Shown: positions 1,663 through 22,409 of the stretch, one piece after another | Layout: each line of letters starts with the position of its first letter | How positions within the stretch are numbered: the stretch's first letter is position 1 | NCBI GenBank assembly: GCA_964413715.1 | Contig: CAYPSN010000001.1 | Location: 135,573-199,572, forward strand | Direction of reading: 5' to 3' | DNA: 64,000 nt | Source of the DNA: an uncultured Candidatus Saccharibacteria bacterium | GTDB taxonomy: Bacteria > Patescibacteriota > Saccharimonadia > CAILAD01 > JADZBC01 | Position numbers and translations under genes: made by a program | Notes under the pieces: generated by a model | Seen by the model: only the letters and a program-made list of their open reading frames with translations | Told to the model about the DNA's origin: nothing | Database searches by the model: none

Positions 1663-2475
1663 ATGCATAAGCGTTATGGTTTTAGCGGGATAGAAGTAAT
1701 TTTGGTTCTAGCAATCATTGCTGCAGTTGGGGGTGTAGCTTGGTTTGGTTTGCGCGGCAATAACGCAAAAGATTCTAGTACTATAGCGAACGCTAAAGCC
1801 GTCACTTGGAGCTTTAACGGCACCGCTTGGGAAGCATCGGGCAAGCCACCGGCGTGTTCAAACCCAATACGCTTTAGCCAAGCGCCATCCGACTTATCAA
1901 AAGCAACTGCAGTGTTGTACCCAGGTCAAACCCGCGGCGGAAATTACAAACCACATGGTGGACTGCGCTACCCTGACGGGCAGAATAACGTCACAGTTAA
2001 AGCCATTTATGACGGTCGAGTTACAGAAGGCGCGCGCTATATCGAAGCAGGCGAAGTCCAGTATTTATTTACCATAGTAAACGATTGCGGCATTGCATAT
2101 CGTTTTGATCACTTACAGACGTTGAGTCCTAAGTTTCAAGCTATGGCTGATAAGTTGCCTGCCGCTCAGCCAAACGAGTCACGCACCACACGTTTTGACG
2201 ATCCTCTTGAAGTTAAGGCAGGGGAAATAGTCGCAACAGCAGTAGGGTTTCCTAAAATGCGCAACGCATCCTATGATTTAGGGGTATATGATCTGCGTAG
2301 CACCAACCAGGCCGCTCAAAGCGCTGAGTATCGCGCTAAACACCAACCCTGGCTGAATCAGGCTGCATACGCAGTGTGCTGGATCGACATGTTTTCAGCC
2401 AGTGACAACGCTATACTTGCGTCCTTACCCGGTGGAGACATGGTGAGCGGCAAACAAAGTGACTACTGCAAGTAA
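1663..2475 (+). CDS. type IV pilin-like protein (prepilin-type N-terminal cleavage/methylation motif)
   Basis: MHKRYG|FSGIEVILVLAIIAAVGG: G-F-x-x-E class III signal with Glu at +5 and hydrophobic helix; TATACT -10 at 1651..1656 only 6 nt before ATG (leaderless). Confidence 0.7.
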   Translation: MHKRYGFSGIEVILVLAIIAAVGGVAWFGLRGNNAKDSSTIANAKAVTWSFNGTAWEASGKPPACSNPIRFSQAPSDLSKATAVLYPGQTRGGNYKPHGGLRYPDGQNNVTVKAIYDGRVTEGARYIEAGEVQYLFTIVNDCGIAYRFDHLQTLSPKFQAMADKLPAAQPNESRTTRFDDPLEVKAGEIVATAVGFPKMRNASYDLGVYDLRSTNQAAQSAEYRAKHQPWLNQAAYAVCWIDMFSASDNAILASLPGGDMVSGKQSDYCK

Positions 2476-2780
2476 TGGCTAAGCAAGATCAGCGTCCAGG
2501 AATTCTCGGTGGTATTGTTTGGCTCTTTATTGCTAGCTCGGTAGTGACCCTATTATTACGTTTTGGCTATGACGCGCTCGGCAAGCAGCCACAGGGGAGT
2601 ATTACGGCACTTTTGTATGATTGGAGCAATACACTTTTGCTGCCAATTAGCTGGCTTGATAGCTATTTAGAGCTCCCCAAAACGTTTGCCAATGTTAGCC
2701 TAACTATCCCGCTCGCGATAGGACTCTATGTGCTTGTGGGCTGGCTTGTGATGGCAGTTATGGCTCGCAATCGAGGCTGA
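2475..2780 (+). CDS. small integral membrane protein (3 TM)
   Basis: ATG overlaps the stop of the pilin gene (TAATGG); hydrophobic throughout. Confidence 0.5.
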   Translation: MAKQDQRPGILGGIVWLFIASSVVTLLLRFGYDALGKQPQGSITALLYDWSNTLLLPISWLDSYLELPKTFANVSLTIPLAIGLYVLVGWLVMAVMARNRG

Positions 2781-2786
2781 GTCTGC

Positions 2787-2814
2787 TTGACAGCATACTT
2801 ATGAGGCGTAATAT
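2787..2814 (+). promoter_or_regulatory. sigma70-like promoter TTGACA-16-TAATAT
   Basis: read directly; sits at the low-GC to high-GC transition. Confidence 0.5.
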
Positions 2815-2859
2815 TAGGTGTACCTACCTGAAGAAGGTTGGTTCATCGGAGGTATCTCC

Positions 2860-3237
2860 TTGGTCGCACTCATGACTCGACCCGAGGCGCAGACCGTCGC
2901 GCCGAGCCGTCCCGACTACACACGCGCGGAGACGATCAACCTGATCAAGCGCGACGGCAGGTGCGGCACGATCCGTGCTCGCCTGCTGCTGTTCTTCGCC
3001 GAAGATCGCACCAAGCGTGGCTGTCACGGTCGCATGACCATGCTGCAAATGCTGCTGATCCATCCGGTGCTCGAGCGCATCATCCCAGATGGAGCGCAGG
3101 CCAAGCCAGGCACAGCACACGAGGCTCTCAACCAGCTCGATCCGCTGGGGCGTCCGTTCGTGCATGGCAAGGATCAGTTCCTGGGCGAGTGGTTCTGCCA
3201 CTGGAGCCTCGGCGTCCGGTTCGAGCCGCAGCGCTAG
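2860..3237 (+). CDS. GC-rich hypothetical protein (ORFan), about 125 aa
   Basis: plus-strand frame has GC3 near 90% versus about 60% for the overlapping minus ORF; GGAGGT 6 nt before in-frame TTG 2860; promoter upstream and terminator downstream in the same orientation; start uncertain (alternative ATG 2872). Confidence 0.5.
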   Translation: MVALMTRPEAQTVAPSRPDYTRAETINLIKRDGRCGTIRARLLLFFAEDRTKRGCHGRMTMLQMLLIHPVLERIIPDGAQAKPGTAHEALNQLDPLGRPFVHGKDQFLGEWFCHWSLGVRFEPQR

Positions 3238-17027: not shown

Positions 17028-17189
17028 ACCTAGTATCGAGAGTGCAGTGAGAGATCTAGCTCTATGACCTGCCGGCAACCACTTTGTAAAAGAACGGTGC
17101 CCCTTCTAGCCCTGTGCGGGAAAGATAAGTGATAGACTTAACTCCTTTTTCCTGCCGGTGGCGGGATAGATACGAAAGGAGTTTTTTTT
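17028..17189 (+). promoter_or_regulatory. SAM-I (S-box) riboswitch with expression-platform terminator (CTCCTTTTTCC...GGAAAGGAG + T8) in the metK leader
   Basis: conserved S-box blocks recognisable: GAGAGTGCAGTGAGAGA, TATGACCTGCCGGCAACC, GGTGCC, GAAAGATAAG; directly upstream of metK. Confidence 0.65.
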
Positions 17190-18161
17190 ATGGCCAAACT
17201 AACTAACCTGCGAACCGCCGAAAGTGTCAGCCCCAAGCACCCCGACAAATTGTGCGATCAAGTCAGCGATGCAATATTGGATGCATACTTAGCCAAAGAC
17301 CCTACGTCCCGAGTAGCAATTGAAGCACTTGGTGGGCACGGTCAGCTGGTGGTGATGGGTGAGGTTACCAGCACGGCGACGATAGACATTGCCCCAATTG
17401 TGCAGCGCATTGTGGGCGACATTGCACTCAGTACCATCATCGTGGAGCAAAGCCCCGAGATTGCCCAAGGAGTCGATACTGGCGGAGCTGGCGACCAGGG
17501 CATAATGATTGGCTACGCTTGCAGCGAAACACCCGAAGCCTTACCGCTCGAAGTAGTGTTAAGCCGTCAGCTCAATCAGTATTTGTTTGAGCGCTGGCCG
17601 TTCGATGGCAAAACACAAATAACGTTGCGAGGAGACCAGATTGTTGCCGTGGTGGCGAGTTTTCAAAACGCAGCTACCGACGAATTGAAACAGGCAATTG
17701 CCGAGTGGCTGCAAAGCAAGCCCACGAGCAAACAACTTGCCATTCACGCCAATCCGGCGGGCGAATGGCGCCAGGGTGGATTTAAGGCTGATACGGGCCT
17801 GACTGGTCGCAAGTTGGTGGTGGATAATTACGGCCCGCGCATTCCAATTGGCGGTGGTTGCTTTAGCGGCAAAGACGCCAGTAAAGTCGATAGATCGGCC
17901 GCTTACATGGCACGTAAGATTGCGCTGGATTATCTTCGTAAGCGTGAAGCAAGTGAAGTATTTACTAGGCTTGCGTATGCAATAGGCTACGATCAGCCAC
18001 TTGAGGCTAGTATCATAATTGACGGCAAACAAGAAGCCGTGGTTGGCTATGACTTGTCGCCACGGGGCATCATTAAGCAGCTTGACTTAACCAAGCCACA
18101 GTTTGAAGCCACGGCGCGCTATGGGCATTTTGGCCATGGTGAATTTAGTTGGGAGAAGTAA
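17190..18161 (+). CDS. metK: S-adenosylmethionine synthetase (short form, 323 aa)
   Basis: SESVSPKHPDKLCDQVSDAILDAYL and GAGDQGIMIGYA signatures. Confidence 0.85.
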   Translation: MAKLTNLRTAESVSPKHPDKLCDQVSDAILDAYLAKDPTSRVAIEALGGHGQLVVMGEVTSTATIDIAPIVQRIVGDIALSTIIVEQSPEIAQGVDTGGAGDQGIMIGYACSETPEALPLEVVLSRQLNQYLFERWPFDGKTQITLRGDQIVAVVASFQNAATDELKQAIAEWLQSKPTSKQLAIHANPAGEWRQGGFKADTGLTGRKLVVDNYGPRIPIGGGCFSGKDASKVDRSAAYMARKIALDYLRKREASEVFTRLAYAIGYDQPLEASIIIDGKQEAVVGYDLSPRGIIKQLDLTKPQFEATARYGHFGHGEFSWEK

Positions 18162-18198
18162 CGAAAACGAAAAACCGCCCACCAGGGCGGAATTTCGC
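18162..18198. terminator. bidirectional terminator CCGCCCACCAGGGCGG flanked by A5/T-rich tracts; copy 1 of a ~50-bp repeat
   Basis: perfect 6-bp stem, loop ACCA. Confidence 0.7.
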
Positions 18199-18215
18199 CC
18201 CGACGAGCGGGAGAG
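18165..18215. repeat. repeat copy 1 (GAAAAACCGCCCACCAGGGCGGAATTTCGCCCCGACGAGCGG), about 80% identical to copy at 19658..19712
   Basis: aligned by eye. Confidence 0.6.
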
Positions 18216-18218
18216 GGT

Positions 18219-18635
18219 CTAGTCGACCGGAACTGCTTGAGGCGTCGCACTGCCTGCGAGCACGACGCTAACGTCTTGCTCGAGATCTCGGGACATTGCC
18301 ACGTCCAGCGGCAACTCGCCATTCCGAGGTGAGGCCAGACGAGAGCACACCCTGTCGTACAAGCTGGCCGCAGCCGGCCCATGCGGCGCCAGCAAGATCC
18401 GATTGTTGTCCGCCATCAAGGAGACGTGCACTCCCTGGAGTCCTCGACAGAGATGGTTCACCGCCGAATATCCGACAGGCGTCAGTCGGCGACCAACAGC
18501 CAGGTGATAGGCGGCAGATCCGAAGTCAGCTCGAGAAGTTGGATCGACGTAGAGAGGTTCTTCGCTGGTCAGAACCAGCTCACCACCCCCTTCTGAGCGG
18601 TCGTAGGCAGTAACCCGAACTTGCATTTCTCTCAC
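18219..18635 (-). CDS. GC-rich hypothetical protein (138 aa)
   Basis: ATG with GAGAAAGTGAGAGAA upstream; likely co-transcribed with 18657..18902. Confidence 0.5.
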   Translation of the reverse strand: MREMQVRVTAYDRSEGGGELVLTSEEPLYVDPTSRADFGSAAYHLAVGRRLTPVGYSAVNHLCRGLQGVHVSLMADNNRILLAPHGPAAASLYDRVCSRLASPRNGELPLDVAMSRDLEQDVSVVLAGSATPQAVPVD

Positions 18636-18656
18636 TTTCTCGTTGTGGGGTGGGGA

Positions 18657-18902
18657 TTACTCGTTGGTTGGGCCGAAGTAGCCCTCATGCTCAAGCAGCC
18701 CTTCGAACCGGGCCACTCCATCAAGTGCGTTCTTGCGCATCCTTGCGCTGCGGTAATGCAGCTCACGCTTGATCTTGGGGTCCAACCTACGCATGTAGTA
18801 CGGATCCGAGAGCACACGTGCGATTACCTCGTCGCACCACTGGGTACTCATCTTGCTCGGGTATACACCTTTCGGTACATAGCGAGCGGGCCCTGTAGCC
18901 AA
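18657..18902 (-). CDS. GC-rich hypothetical protein (81 aa), TTG start
   Basis: GAGGAAGAG upstream of TTG; start uncertain. Confidence 0.45.
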   Translation of the reverse strand: MATGPARYVPKGVYPSKMSTQWCDEVIARVLSDPYYMRRLDPKIKRELHYRSARMRKNALDGVARFEGLLEHEGYFGPTNE

Positions 18903-18961
18903 ATTCTCTTCCTCTAGTTCGATGATGAGCGGATTACTACATTACCATGAAATAAGTATTC

Positions 18962-19016
18962 TTACAATAACGAAAGCCGCCCCACGGGGGAGAGGCGACT
19001 CTCTGCCGTGGGGCGG
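18962..19016 (-). terminator. terminator CCGCCCCACGG...CCGTGGGGCGG + CTTTCGTTATTG (minus strand)
   Basis: 11-bp stem. Confidence 0.65.
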
Positions 19017-19032
19017 ATGGGTTGTACTTGGG

Positions 19033-19584
19033 TCAGTCGAGGGTTGCGTCGGTAGTGACAACCTCGTTGGCCTTGGCCACGAAGCGTCCGAGGACGGCCA
19101 GCCCCTTGGGGCCGACGAAGGATGCCCGACGTGCATGGCGAAGAACGCTGCGAACCTCATCCTGGAACTCGGAGAAGTAAAAGACCTTGGCCAAGGTAGC
19201 CAGGTCAACCTCCCTTGCGCCTGCCGTTCGTGCAGGCATGAGCGGGCTGTCGCTGCAGCTGAGAGGATCCTCTTGCACGATGCTGACAGACATCCAGATC
19301 GAAGTGATCACCTTGACCAGGTATCCGGTCTCGCGCGGCGAAAGATCGAGGTTGCGACAGATCCGCTTGCGGACCACTTCCGTGATCATCACGCCGGACA
19401 AGTCGATCACCCCTTCAGGCGGACCATCAGAGCCCTTCTTCTGCTTCTTGCCGGACTTCTTCTTCGAAGCCCCCTTCTTCGGCGGCGCCTTGAGCTCGGC
19501 CTTCTTGGAGAGCTTGGGCTTCTTGCCCTTGCCCTTCTTGTTCTTCTTGGCGCCCTTCTTGGGCTCCTTCTTCTTGCTTGCCAT
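19033..19584 (-). CDS. protein with about 50-aa lysine-rich (AKKA/KKG) N-terminal tail resembling histone H1 / actinobacterial HupB C-tails, plus unknown C-terminal domain
   Basis: MASKKKEPKKGAKKNKKGKGKKPKLSKKAELKAPPKKGASKKKSGKKQKKG; high GC. Confidence 0.55.
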   Translation of the reverse strand: MASKKKEPKKGAKKNKKGKGKKPKLSKKAELKAPPKKGASKKKSGKKQKKGSDGPPEGVIDLSGVMITEVVRKRICRNLDLSPRETGYLVKVITSIWMSVSIVQEDPLSCSDSPLMPARTAGAREVDLATLAKVFYFSEFQDEVRSVLRHARRASFVGPKGLAVLGRFVAKANEVVTTDATLD

Positions 19585-19623
19585 GCCGCGCTTCTTTCTG
19601 TAGTTGGACGGCTGAACTTCGCA

Positions 19624-19652
19624 ATAATACTATATTTTGCGTAATAAATCAA
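19624..19652 (-). promoter_or_regulatory. sigma70-like promoter TTGATT-17-TATTAT(TGCG) (minus strand)
   Basis: read directly. Confidence 0.55.
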
Positions 19653-19657
19653 TACAA

Positions 19658-19712
19658 CCGAAGAACCGCCCACCAGGGACGGAATCTCCGTCCGCAGTGA
19701 GCGGATTGTTTT
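19658..19712. repeat. repeat copy 2 (GAAGAACCGCCCACCAGGGACGGAATCTCCGTCCGCAGTGAGCGG)
   Basis: aligned by eye to 18165..18215; contains hairpin GGACGGAGATTCCGTCC. Confidence 0.6.
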
Positions 19713-19729
19713 GGCAGGGTAGAGCTCTG

Positions 19730-20374
19730 CTAGCGATACCGATAGCGCCTCAGCCGTCGCCAGTAGGGCCAACGCCGCTTGAACTTGCAGCGCAAGCACT
19801 TGCAGACGTTCCAGTGCGTCCGACTGAACCGCTGGCAACGCCAACAGTGGCAGTGGCTGTGTTGCCGCCTTGGAGCGTCGCGCCAGTTCTTCCAGCGCGA
19901 AAACAGTGAGTTGTCATACCAGTACAGCCGCAGCTTGAAGCACTTATACAAGCACCAGCCCACTAGCTGCTCGAGACACAAACCAAGCAGCAAGGATCCG
20001 AAAGCGATCGCTGGCCAGGAATTAGCCAACGTAAAGCTGAACTTTTCACCTCCGCCCAAGTCGAGCATCCACAGAGTGTAGAGCCCACCGAGCGAGATGA
20101 GCAGACCAACTAGCCCCAACCAGCGCAGCGAACTACGCAAGCGTACTTCGCCAGCCTGATCATCGGCCTGGTCGTAGAACGGCGTGCGTTCATCCTTGCT
20201 TGAACCGAAGTGATCAGTATGAGTCTCTTCAACGATCAGGCCCCGCAGCCTATCCGCCTGCGGTGCTGGCTGGGCCATGAAGGCTTCGAGCGTGACCTCA
20301 AGCACAGGGTCCTCGGTGCCAAAAACCTCCTCGACAGCTGCGAAGAGGTCGTCTGGTACTTCATCGTCAGCCAC
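19730..20374 (-). CDS. membrane protein with acidic N-terminus, 2 TM helices and Cys/Arg/Trp-rich C-terminal tail (CxCxxC x2); 3' part uncertain
   Basis: GTG start with AAGGAGGT RBS; promoter TTGATT-17-TATAAA at 20417..20445 (minus); the C-terminal 75 aa also reads open in another frame. Confidence 0.4.
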   Translation of the reverse strand: MADDEVPDDLFAAVEEVFGTEDPVLEVTLEAFMAQPAPQADRLRGLIVEETHTDHFGSSKDERTPFYDQADDQAGEVRLRSSLRWLGLVGLLISLGGLYTLWMLDLGGGEKFSFTLANSWPAIAFGSLLLGLCLEQLVGWCLYKCFKLRLYWYDNSLFSRWKNWRDAPRRQHSHCHCWRCQRFSRTHWNVCKCLRCKFKRRWPYWRRLRRYRYR

Positions 20375-20445
20375 AGCCGACCTCCTTGATTCGATGTATA
20401 GGAACGAATAGATAGATTTATACGCTGATGAGCAGCATAAATCAA

Positions 20446-20850
20446 CCTAAACAAAAAGGGCCGGGGGTGGGGAGACGAATCCCCCCACCGCACGACCTCA
20501 ACTCGGAGGGATCGGGCCCGCAGACCATCCCAGCGCTCAGCACGCCCCCTTCGGCCGAGTAGCGTACGCCGCCACCGGTGCGATACGCCTCCCGGCGTAT
20601 CTTCCACAATCGTGGTGAGTCCCTGTCTTTCCACTGGGCAGTGGGTGAGTATTTTAGCTTTCCGCTGCGCCTCTACTGGCACTTTTACCTAGCTTATCCA
20701 GCACCCGAGCCCAGATTTGGCTGCTTCGGACAGGGGTGGGGGTCTTTAGGCTAGGAGAGAATCTGAGATTCTCTTAGTTTGGCCGCAAGCAGCCTAGATG
20801 ACGATGGTCACCATGTGGGCTATATTACGCCTTTTTTGAGTAAGTTCAAG
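20446..20850. ncRNA. candidate structured non-coding RNA or long structured UTR, class unknown
   Basis: about 400 nt GC-rich, no credible ORF/RBS; dense perfect hairpins (e.g. GATACGCC-tccc-GGCGTATC, GAGAGAATC-tga-GATTCTC); bounded by A5/T6 tracts. Confidence 0.3.
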
Positions 20851-20854
20851 CCTA

Positions 20855-21193
20855 TTATTTATTATCGGACTTTTCGTACTCGCGAATCTTGCGTCGTGCG
20901 ATTGTACTACGAAGCAGGTTGTTGAGGAATGCAGCAATAATACCAATACCGATGAGGAGATAGAAGATAGTAAAGAGTTTACCTAAGTCTGTCTTGGGCG
21001 TAATGTCGCCGTAGCCGACAGTGGTAAGAGTCACCACGCAAAAATAAAGGGAATCAAGCCAGCGTAAACCTTCTACGTAATGGTAGAACACCACGCCAAT
21101 TGCCAATACAGACATTACGCCGAGAGCGATGAGGCGAAAGTTACGCCGAATAGCGTGGGCTTCTTTGGGTGTTAAATCATCTTTGGGTTTCAT
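20855..21193 (-). CDS. minimal two-TM potassium channel (KcsA-like)
   Basis: TTVGYGD selectivity-filter signature between two TM helices. Confidence 0.8.
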
Positions 21194-21235
21194 AAACTTT
21201 ATTGTACCACGGGCCGTGATGGCCGAACGCTAGGG

Positions 21236-21263
21236 TTGCCATAACCTAAGCTTATGCTATAGT
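21236..21263 (+). promoter_or_regulatory. sigma70-like promoter TTGCCA-16-TATAGT driving the aroQ-tyrA leader
   Basis: read directly; ATG of leader peptide 7 nt downstream. Confidence 0.5.
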
Positions 21264-21269
21264 TATATC

Positions 21270-21335
21270 ATGTCAAAGCACGAACTTCGCGCATTTTCAT
21301 ACTATTACACCGACACCTTTCGTGGCGGCTATTAG
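21270..21335 (+). CDS. leader peptide MSKHELRAFSYYYTDTFRGGY (21 aa; 4 Tyr, 2 Phe) of a putative transcription attenuator
   Basis: leaderless ATG; Tyr-Tyr-Tyr run; 3' end (GTGGCGGCT) is complementary to the 5' arm of the downstream terminator (AGCCGCCAC). Confidence 0.5.
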   Translation: MSKHELRAFSYYYTDTFRGGY

Positions 21336-21367
21336 CATGTATTAAAGCTCATAAACAAACTATAAGT

Positions 21368-21390
21368 CAGCCGCCACACGGCGGTTTTTT
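21368..21390 (+). terminator. attenuator terminator AGCCGCC-ACAC-GGCGG + TTTTTT, 19 nt before aroQ ATG
   Basis: hairpin plus T6. Confidence 0.7.
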
Positions 21391-21409
21391 ATTTACAAGG
21401 AATTTAAAC

Positions 21410-21709
21410 ATGAACATACAAACAACTACATTAACAACTCTTCGGACTAAGCTTGATGCAATCGACGACCAGTTGATAAATATATTGGCAGAGCGGTTTG
21501 AACTCACGAGTCAGGTAGGCGAATACAAAGCCAAACACCATCTTCCTGCTATCGATTTGCAGCGAGAAGCAGAGCAGTTTACTCGAATTAGTGAACTTGC
21601 CCTAGCGAAAGGCCTCGACCAAGACTTCGCACGGTCCTTCTTGAGGCTGATCATTGACGAGGTCGTGCGTAATCACGAAGCAATCCGAAAAGATCAGAAC
21701 CATGTGTAA
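21410..21709 (+). CDS. aroQ: chorismate mutase (AroQ class)
   Basis: LRTKLDAIDDQLINILAERFELTSQVGEYK matches the AroQ fold consensus; 99 aa. Confidence 0.8.
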   Translation: MNIQTTTLTTLRTKLDAIDDQLINILAERFELTSQVGEYKAKHHLPAIDLQREAEQFTRISELALAKGLDQDFARSFLRLIIDEVVRNHEAIRKDQNHV

Positions 21710-22409
21710 ATCAATCACATCTATCGGAATAATCGGCAAAGGTGCATTCGGTACACTAGCATTTAGCCTGGTGCCCAGCGGTGTTGCTCGGCACACGTTT
21801 GGGCCAGAGGATAACCAAGAGCAATTCTTGAAAGTTGCGCACTGCGACGCCATTCTTCTTGCCATACCTCTAGGCTCCTACGAGGATGTATTAACAAGAC
21901 TCAAACCACATCTACACCCGGCAACCCTGCTGATTGATGTGTGCTCGGTTAAACTAGGGCCAGCGGAAATCATTGCCAGGCTGCTACCTGAACACAAGGA
22001 GGTCTTACTTACTCATCCACTATTTGGCCCCGAGACGTACTCACGAAGTGGCAGCAGTGCCACGCTCGTCGTTTGCACAGAGCTAACTGGGAAATCAAAG
22101 GATTTTATTAGGTTCTGCAGGGAACAGCTAAATATGAGCATAGTCGCCATGACACCCGAGAAGCATGATAAGGAAATGGCGTTCGTGCATGCCATGACGT
22201 TTTTTATAGCTCGTGGTCTGCGGGAAATCAATCTTGATCATCTCGTGCTTGAGACGCCGTCATTCCGGCATATCAAGCAACTAGCCCATCTGGATAGGAT
22301 ACATAGTCAGGAACTTTTTGAGACCATTGAGCTTGGCAACCCCTATGCAGCTATGGTCAGAGAACACCTCATCGCCAACCTGGAGCGAACCAACAATTCT
22401 CTAAAATAG
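21702..22409 (+). CDS. tyrA: prephenate dehydrogenase
   Basis: IGIIGKGAFG NAD-binding motif; start overlaps aroQ stop (ATGTGTAA). Confidence 0.8.
   Translation: MCKSITSIGIIGKGAFGTLAFSLVPSGVARHTFGPEDNQEQFLKVAHCDAILLAIPLGSYEDVLTRLKPHLHPATLLIDVCSVKLGPAEIIARLLPEHKEVLLTHPLFGPETYSRSGSSATLVVCTELTGKSKDFIRFCREQLNMSIVAMTPEKHDKEMAFVHAMTFFIARGLREINLDHLVLETPSFRHIKQLAHLDRIHSQELFETIELGNPYAAMVREHLIANLERTNNSLK

Follow-up and report, generated by a model that had tools for sequence, protein, structure and literature searches.

Large structured RNAs encoded directly upstream of a small membrane-protein gene have been described in the Firmicutes, where OLE RNA precedes the gene for OapA. A comparable arrangement was analysed here in a 64,000-nt stretch of DNA (the window) from contig CAYPSN010000001.1 (assembly GCA_964413715.1, positions 135,573 to 199,572 of the forward strand). 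The window comes from the chromosome of an uncultured Saccharibacteria bacterium within the candidate phyla radiation (CPR), and its nearest genomes are Saccharibacteria metagenome-assembled genomes. The element in question is a predicted RNA of about 365 nt, compared with about 610 nt for OLE, encoded on the minus strand between a K+ channel gene and g214, a gene of unassigned function. It is a real, previously unclassified structured RNA gene with a narrow known distribution. The preferred reading, to which a probability of about 0.5 was assigned, is that of a stand-alone gene for a non-coding RNA of approximately 365 nt, which would be stably folded and would serve as a protein-binding or ribonucleoprotein (RNP) scaffold or in another structure-dependent function. 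Expression and stability of the RNA are presumed. The element does not look like a messenger RNA, an untranslated region (UTR) or a simple base-pairing small RNA (sRNA).

Unlike OLE, the window RNA gave no match to the Rfam OLE model and occurs in a different phylum, and g214 is also found without it; OapA and g214 are unrelated as far as tested (no Pfam or NCBIfam match for g214). By analogy, the OLE/OapA pair suggests a working model in which the RNA would belong to a membrane-tethered RNP. The raiA, ROOL, GOLLD and HEARO RNAs share with it discovery as a GC-rich intergenic region free of open reading frames (ORFs), a multi-helix fold, GNRA loops, conserved internal loops and a patchy distribution. 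It gave no Rfam match to any of them, however, and was seen in a few Saccharibacteria lineages, at one genomic position. Class A RNase P RNA (RF00010), together with the CPR forms of Lui et al. (2021; PMC8172020), resembles it in size, 5'/3' closure, host group and scores below the standard Rfam thresholds, whereas the window RNA fails both RNase P domain models, is without P4 sequences and is not universal among relatives. Leader-peptide attenuators likewise comprise a promoter, an AUG 7 nt further on, a short ORF with regulatory-looking codons and a terminator with a possible competing pairing. The window RNA differs from these in its conserved scaffold of about 300 nt, in the promoter that follows its terminator and in an ORF that is not conserved in a diverged homologue, L183.

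The RNA is known from two related Saccharibacteria species plus L183. The second species is represented by L009 (CAZCAO010000001.1), whose K+ channel protein is 82% identical to that of the window; its RNA is 94% identical overall and 100% identical over about 296 nt, against 69-89% for the flanking genes. L183 (Logan DRR438534) was found by reading upstream of g214 family members. Its g214 homologue is 37% identical, and about 345 nt upstream of that gene match the window RNA. The match was detected with nhmmer over the 3' half (E 1.2e-9) and with a covariance model of RNA positions 63-289 (20.2 bits, E 3.6e-5); the same model gave no other match in 452 kb of unrelated loci.

Once L183 was added to the alignment, 10 pairs were seen to be changed on both sides yet to remain paired; shuffled alignments averaged 2.2, and slid controls gave 0-2. 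None of 500 shuffles reached the observed covariation on any of five measures. The close alleles alone gave weak covariation support, 13 of 500 shuffles reaching the observed value. Pairs kept by compensatory substitutions, the mark of a structured RNA, were found in an alignment of five distinct sequences that had been fitted to the model. When L183 was folded by itself, the hairpins termed hD, hE and hF below were obtained at homologous places. On this comparative evidence the predicted fold is conserved across diverged homologues.

Judged by its conserved signals, the region is an independent minus-strand transcription unit with a predicted sigma-70-type promoter. The unit and its neighbours comprised the following.

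20844-20849, minus strand: -35 box TTGAAC, starting 6 nt past the K+ channel stop codon (20855); TTG is kept in L009 and the 16-nt spacer has diverged.
20822-20827, minus strand: -10 box TAATAT; GTAATATA is invariant between the window and L009, and the next 7 nt have diverged.
20449-20815, minus strand: RNA body of about 365 nt, delimited by conservation boundaries, with the start placed 7 nt past the -10 box and the end at the U-run.
20449-20497, minus strand: intrinsic terminator, GGUCG / internal loop / GGUGGGGGGA-UUCG-UCUCCCCACC / CGGCC, then UUUUUGUUU.
20417-20445, minus strand: separate g214 promoter TTGATT-17-TATAAA, 3 nt past the U-run and outside the RNA, with boxes kept and spacer diverged relative to L009.
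19730-20374, minus strand: g214, a 214-aa gene, function unassigned, the next gene after the RNA.
20855-21193, minus strand: K+ channel gene (Pfam Ion_trans_2).

Identity between the window and L009 sets in abruptly at CAUGGUGACC (about 20815), right after the diverged 7 nt. In the terminator of L009 an A-U pair has become G-C by compensatory change, a G-U pair has become A-U, and a C opposite G has become U. In L183, a homologous terminator hairpin and U-run (80% identical over 51 nt) and a promoter at the same position (TTGACA-16-TATCAT, 11 of 12 consensus matches) were found. The minus strand and the boundaries of the unit were assigned because the promoter boxes are conserved around a diverged spacer and the terminator shows compensatory changes. 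As far as can be read from sequence, then, a promoter and an intrinsic terminator belong to the RNA itself, and each is kept in its homologues. The consensus structure of five alleles was more stable on the minus than on the plus strand by 13 kcal/mol (-157.9 versus -144.8 kcal/mol). One-sided substitutions in predicted pairs gave G-U or Watson-Crick pairs on the minus strand and A-C mismatches on the plus strand. A plus-strand RNA was rejected: its long-range helix is lost in L009, the T6 tract is unconserved, and its consensus fold is the poorer by the difference given above.

The initial annotation had placed the interval 20446-20850 between convergent genes and had proposed that its A5 and T6 tracts could end a transcript in either orientation. 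Both points were corrected. The K+ channel gene and g214 lie in tandem, each on the minus strand, and only A5 belongs to a terminator, as the U-run of the minus-strand RNA; T6 falls within the spacer of the promoter that serves the RNA, and L009 does not conserve it. The interval was rightly called ORF-free, as it holds no supported coding sequence. The mechanical 148-aa ORF at 20236-20682 (minus strand) crosses the terminator, the following promoter and the start of g214. Its description as hairpin-dense was also borne out: on either strand, dinucleotide-shuffled versions folded less well than the region itself (z -3.6 and -3.4), and none of 100 was as stable. GC content is above average (0.60 versus a window mean of 0.51, standard deviation 0.058), but "GC-rich" overstates a modest excess of 1.5 standard deviations, which is matched or exceeded by 11% of 370-nt windows. 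Perfect stems that had been listed are present at 20756-20774, at 20582-20601 and between 20719-20726 and 20787-20794; CCACTG-GG-CAGTGG, as drawn, needs an impossible 2-nt loop.

The predicted architecture of the RNA is given below in 5' to 3' order.

20794-20814, minus strand: possible leaderless mini-ORF AUG GUG ACC AUC GUC AUC UAG (MVTIVI, then stop), identical in L009 and absent from L183.
20780-20790, minus strand: 5' strand of long-range helix S1, pairing with 20516-20527 in RNAalifold; G-to-A at 20519 turns U-G into U-A in L009 and L167, and the helix is unconfirmed in L183.
20756-20774, minus strand: hairpin h2, AGAGAAUC-UCA-GAUUCUCU, a perfect inverted repeat invariant in all alleles; L183 has a hairpin at the equivalent place.
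20738-20755, minus strand: 5' sides of the closing helices S2 and S3, whose partner strand is 20529-20549; 3 pairs are changed on both sides in L183.
20729-20735, minus strand: 5' strand of helix H5, pairing with 20621-20627; in L183, 4 of the 7 pairs survive, 2 of these with both sides changed.
20716-20728, minus strand: conserved internal loop CGAAGCAGCCAAA, which reads CGAAGCCGACCAA in L183.
20634-20714, minus strand: apical domain with helices H6 and H7 and three small hairpin caps, taken from the folds and replaceable.
20604-20615, minus strand: hairpin hD, CCAC-GAUU-GUGG, which is CCGC-GAGG-GCGG in L183 (A-U to G-C) and has loop-only changes in L167.
20582-20601, minus strand: hairpin hE, 8 bp, with GNRA tetraloop GGGA; A-U to G-C in L167, loop GCGA in L006 and L008.
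20555-20578, minus strand: hairpin hF, loop GCGUA; C-to-U opposite G in L167; L183 has GACGGG-CGUA-CCCGUC at the same place, predicted independently (centroid fold).
20578-20686, minus strand: segment holding all strain-level allele differences (allele comparisons of L006, L008 and L167).

In this fold the long-range helices would join the 5' third to the 3' part and so close the scaffold. The scaffold would enclose a long arm whose internal loop (CGAAGCNGNCCAA / AAAG) keeps its sequence, three hairpins in a row and the lineage-variable apical domain. Sequence conservation extending to L183 was found in the internal loop CGAAGCNGNCCAA, in the hairpin tip GCC-GGGA-GGC of hE, where L183 adds one more compensatory pair, and in the GCGUA loop. 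The 82-nt apical domain is swapped in L183 for 35 nt with two different hairpins. Alternative long-range pairings to S1-S3 are possible, namely GACCAUC/GAUGGUC and GGCUGCUU/AAGCAGCC.

Membership of known RNA families was examined against Rfam 15, whose models cover among others SRP, 6S, OLE, ROOL, GOLLD, HEARO, raiA, riboswitches, T-box, introns and ribozymes. No family matched the region at gathering scores or at E<=10 (701-nt and 386-nt slices), and none matched the L183 homologue up to E=10. No tmRNA was found by ARAGORN in the window or by the Rfam tmRNA model. The initial annotation had found none of the signatures of tmRNA, RNase P, SRP and 6S by eye. The only nearby match, to Hammerhead_II at 20338-20441 (plus strand; 17.6 bits, gathering score 37, E 0.92), covers the start and promoter of g214 on the opposite strand, outside the RNA, and is regarded as chance. 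An SRP-like GAAGCAGCCA motif, CsrB-like GGA motifs, a tetraloop receptor and a diversity-generating retroelement were considered and dropped on sequence, because no model matched, GGA was unenriched and the changes were not adenine-specific.

Coding potential was assessed in parallel. Pfam searches of stop-free pieces in all six frames returned nothing, the longest frame of the RNA had no relative in the protein database, and tblastn of window frames against L183 gave only short pieces mirroring nucleotide identity, with no conserved reading frame. Neither a significant Rfam match nor a protein-coding or frameshifted homologue was obtained, the two findings that the initial annotation had named as fatal to a novel RNA. 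Its option of an unclassified structured sRNA is the one now supported, by the promoter and terminator of the RNA itself and by a diverged homologue with compensatory pair changes. Phage, plasmid and viral collections gave no match to the RNA, and the window was found to hold no paralogue of it. Scanned against metagenomes, a pseudo-protein translation of the RNA gave 600 pattern matches that were due to chance, and none was confirmed. A three-block DNA pattern returned 45 metagenome matches, all chance or coding except a canonical RNase P RNA (L116), in a collection evidently without this lineage.

RNase P RNA was the best lead among known families because divergent forms have been published for related bacteria: 10 of 35 complete CPR genomes needed lowered RF00010 thresholds, and some were without P12-P14, P18 or the UGG motif (PMC8172020). 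In addition to this precedent, to size, to 5'/3' closure and to a CPR host, the window RNA offers an 8-bp GNRA hairpin and short colinear resemblances, seen by eye, to RF00010 blocks. Against this, RF00010 gave no match at its gathering score (100 bits) or at E<=10, whereas L116, a true RNase P RNA, scored 289 bits in the same search, and local alignment to the RF00010 consensus was at shuffle level (z -0.5 to 1.5). Custom models were built from 10 type-A S-domains (R1; P7-P11 cruciform, J11/12, J12/13) and from 9 C-domains (R2; CR-I, CR-IV and CR-V forming P4, P1-P3, P15, P18) and were run with filters off. R1 reached at best 4 bits (E 0.23), off the candidate arm, although it detected seven untrained RNase P RNAs at 36-170 bits, including reduced ones of about 120 nt. 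With R2, matches were confined to generic hairpins aligned with P1, none above 8.4 bits. The RNA has neither CR-I nor CR-V sequences and no conserved P4 sequences. Two further points tell against RNase P: the apical domain is replaceable, and L134 and L182 lack the RNA at the syntenic site, which speaks against universality, although either may carry a copy elsewhere.

The g214 family is small, with eight clusters (P0001-P0008) in 5.8 billion proteins, and g214 gave no match in Pfam, NCBIfam, PHROGs or PADLOC. The protein is acidic at its N-terminus, has two long helices of hydrophobic residues and is rich in Arg and Trp in its tail, and its sequence predicts a two-helix membrane protein with zinc-finger-like features. 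Eight residues are invariant in the tail (H172, C175, C177, C180, H187, C191, C193 and C196), ahead of the Arg/Trp-rich end, and could form a double zinc site. In the window, L009 and L183 alike, g214 follows directly downstream of the RNA and shares its orientation. The upstream neighbour of the RNA varies, being the K+ channel gene in the window and an opposite-strand gene in L183.

On the stand-alone reading, the terminated RNA would fold, act in trans and possibly bind the g214 protein. g214 was chosen as the most likely partner because of the analogy with RNAs encoded beside their protein partners; that its product is in fact the partner is, on this analogy, possible rather than probable. 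A bolder version is distinctly doubtful. In it the RNA would represent a new accessory structured RNA class in CPR, forming a membrane-tethered RNP with the zinc-binding, Arg/Trp-rich tail of g214, an arrangement like that of OLE and OapA but of independent origin, and carrying a swappable apical module exchanged among strains and species by short-tract recombination. The RNA would be one of few candidate large structured RNAs for Saccharibacteria and other CPR bacteria, whose genomes are tiny and whose non-coding RNAs are barely known, and it comes with a testable partner in a conserved, zinc-finger-like membrane protein.

Several observations weigh against the stand-alone reading. Only three lineages are known and only five distinct sequences were available, and the L183 alignment, having been fitted to the model, favours structure. 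Helices H5 and H6 and a 3-bp CCA/UGG helix are broken in some alleles; A-to-U at 20626 in L167, for example, breaks one H5 pair. The AlphaFold model of g214 (predicted local distance difference test score 54.5) is too poor to judge RNA binding. Homologues of g214 in L134, L182, L179 and the P0004 group have no RNA upstream, and the RNA and g214 are for this reason not obligatorily linked. Finally, because the region is a recombination mosaic (see below), the 100% core identity between two species cannot be ascribed to constraint alone.

At two of the loci where g214 lacks the RNA, L179 (3585-3633) and L180 (about 2930-2975), a shared element AAGGAGC(A/G)(U/C)CCAUGGAGGUGGG was observed just ahead of the g214 promoter. 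In L179 it pairs with a C-rich strand (CCCACC...), and in L180 it is followed by a U-run. The L179 copy was aligned by the RNA model to the outer helices alone (12.7 bits, E 0.006). The element could be a remnant or precursor of the closing stem of the RNA, or simply a terminator. L180 also has an 819-nt gene-poor interval (2212-3030) from an ABC transporter gene to the g214 homologue, with repeated GTCATTCCCGC...GCGGGAATC hairpins; it shows a sub-threshold resemblance to FtrB, an unrelated Rfam sRNA (21 bits, gathering score 66), and no similarity to the window RNA.

The main rival to the stand-alone gene is a cis-acting leader or attenuator, in which either the folded domain or translation of the mini-ORF would do the sensing and transcription from the promoter of the RNA would stop at the terminator or read through into the g214 operon. 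The RNA is immediately upstream of g214 and in the same orientation wherever it is found, and its terminator is unusually conserved. From the sequence, the terminator's 5' arm has a complement in the C-rich tract 20735-20742 (CCCCCACC), which could act as an antiterminator. The mini-ORF starts 7 nt past the -10 box, its five codons after Met are all Val, Thr or Ile, and a clear leaderless leader-peptide attenuator lies 450 bp away in the same genome. However, the two features expected of a leader, namely an uninterrupted path into g214 and a conserved sensing element, were not found, although terminator/antiterminator pairing is possible. A TTGnnn-17-GTATAAAT promoter separates the terminator from g214 in the window and L183, and the same promoter precedes the g214 homologues of L182 and L180 (4 of 4 loci read, RNA or not). 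L134 has the GTATAAAT -10 box as well. In the window this promoter stands ahead of g214's strong ribosome-binding site. The mini-ORF is missing in L183, a scaffold of about 300 nt is far beyond the needs of known attenuators, and no Rfam riboswitch or T-box model matched. A leader was considered rather doubtful.

Presence of the RNA is patchy. L134 has a g214 homologue 54% identical to that of the window, but only 98 nt lie between its channel gene and g214, and these hold a short hairpin after the channel gene and no RNA. L182, a close relative of L183, has no RNA at the g214 site, and none was found alongside K+ channel relatives at 17 other Saccharibacteria loci. The alleles are themselves mosaic. 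The 4-5 sites at which L006 and L008 depart from the window sequence all fall within 20592-20686, and about 1 kb of flanks is identical; L167 and L166 differ at 15 sites, all inside 82 nt of the RNA, of 5645 nt compared. These changes respect the fold: they are a GNRA loop change (GGGA to GCGA), loop-only changes in hD, A-U to G-C in hE, three C-to-U or A-to-G changes that yield G-U pairs, and three changes that break end or near-end pairs. L002 (ERZ27282915 k141_812061) is 100% identical to the window over 18129-22399 (4.3 kb) and has about 225 differences in roughly 2 kb outside, that is, roughly 10% divergence, which points to recent recombination or a sweep between diverged strains. From these patterns the region is a recombination mosaic, its alleles shaped by local recombination. 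Extreme purifying selection, once entertained for the 100% core identity, was revised after the mosaic alleles and the 4.3-kb identical block had been seen. Patchy presence and mosaic alleles together would make the locus a natural case for the gain, loss and exchange of an RNA gene in reduced genomes.

This variability could also be that of an accessory, horizontally exchanged "selfish" RNA module, toxin/antitoxin-like or defence-related, in which an apical or central specificity determinant would be under diversifying exchange. Presence varies among close relatives in two clades (window and L009 versus L134; L183 versus L182), allele differences fall in one segment amid identical kilobases in two species, and one core allele is common to species whose flanking genes are 69-89% identical. 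Such a module is nevertheless unlikely. The phage, plasmid and viral collections were negative, PADLOC and PHROGs gave nothing significant in neighbouring genes, and there are no repeats, antisense partner gene or toxin-like peptide. The locus is fixed rather than scattered, and since the whole region is a recombination mosaic, local exchange needs no special mechanism.

A long structured 3' UTR of the K+ channel messenger RNA and nothing more, one of the options of the initial annotation, is quite unlikely. No terminator lies between the channel stop codon (20855) and the RNA, so read-through transcripts are expected; but conserved -35 and -10 boxes belong to the RNA itself, and the conserved sequence sets in at the predicted start. 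In L183 the promoter is near consensus and the upstream neighbour is on the opposite strand, and in L134 the channel gene is followed by the short hairpin without the RNA. Non-functional DNA, a decayed gene or a GC-rich remnant folding by chance is very unlikely. The narrow known distribution would fit it, but no remnants of a protein were found, promoter and terminator both show conservation, and compensatory changes persist at a divergence at which the neighbouring protein retains 37% identity; the decayed cassette of the initial annotation found no support. A highly divergent, reduced RNase P RNA of the kind that falls below Rfam thresholds in CPR bacteria is extremely improbable and was rejected by shuffle-controlled alignment and two custom covariance models, the S-domain model backed by its positive control, which demonstrates that this obvious guess for CPR can be tested and rejected with purpose-built models.

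Further observations concerned the surrounding genes. The adjacent K+ channel protein recurs without change on metagenome contigs, among them the 200-kb JGI contig Ga0172278_1384, which, like the metagenome-assembled genome GCA_964496815.1, carries the RNA. Between the window and L009, third-codon-position identity is only 39% in the K+ channel gene (20855-21193, minus strand), compared with 78-82% in g214, chorismate mutase and prephenate dehydrogenase and 100% identity in the RNA core. The channel gene looks like an allelic replacement within a more conserved stretch.

The putative attenuator mentioned above lies at 21236-21409 (plus strand), ahead of the chorismate mutase (21410-21709) and prephenate dehydrogenase genes. 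A promoter-like TTGCCA-16-TATAGT is followed 7 nt on by a leaderless ATG (21270), which opens the ORF MSKHELRAFSYYYTDTFRGGY, then stop (21270-21335), with three tandem Tyr codons. GGCGGC at the end of this ORF is complementary to the 5' arm of a terminator at 21369-21396. The leader peptide is identical in L009 despite synonymous changes (TTT to TTC, ACC to ACT), and by its sequence the region looks like a classical leader-peptide attenuator. A SAM (S-adenosylmethionine) riboswitch (RF00162, 52 bits) was found at 17030-17131 (plus strand). The gene that it precedes (17190-18161) encodes a short S-adenosylmethionine synthetase of 323 aa, and the L009 copy of the riboswitch is 87.5% identical, differing in the variable hairpin.

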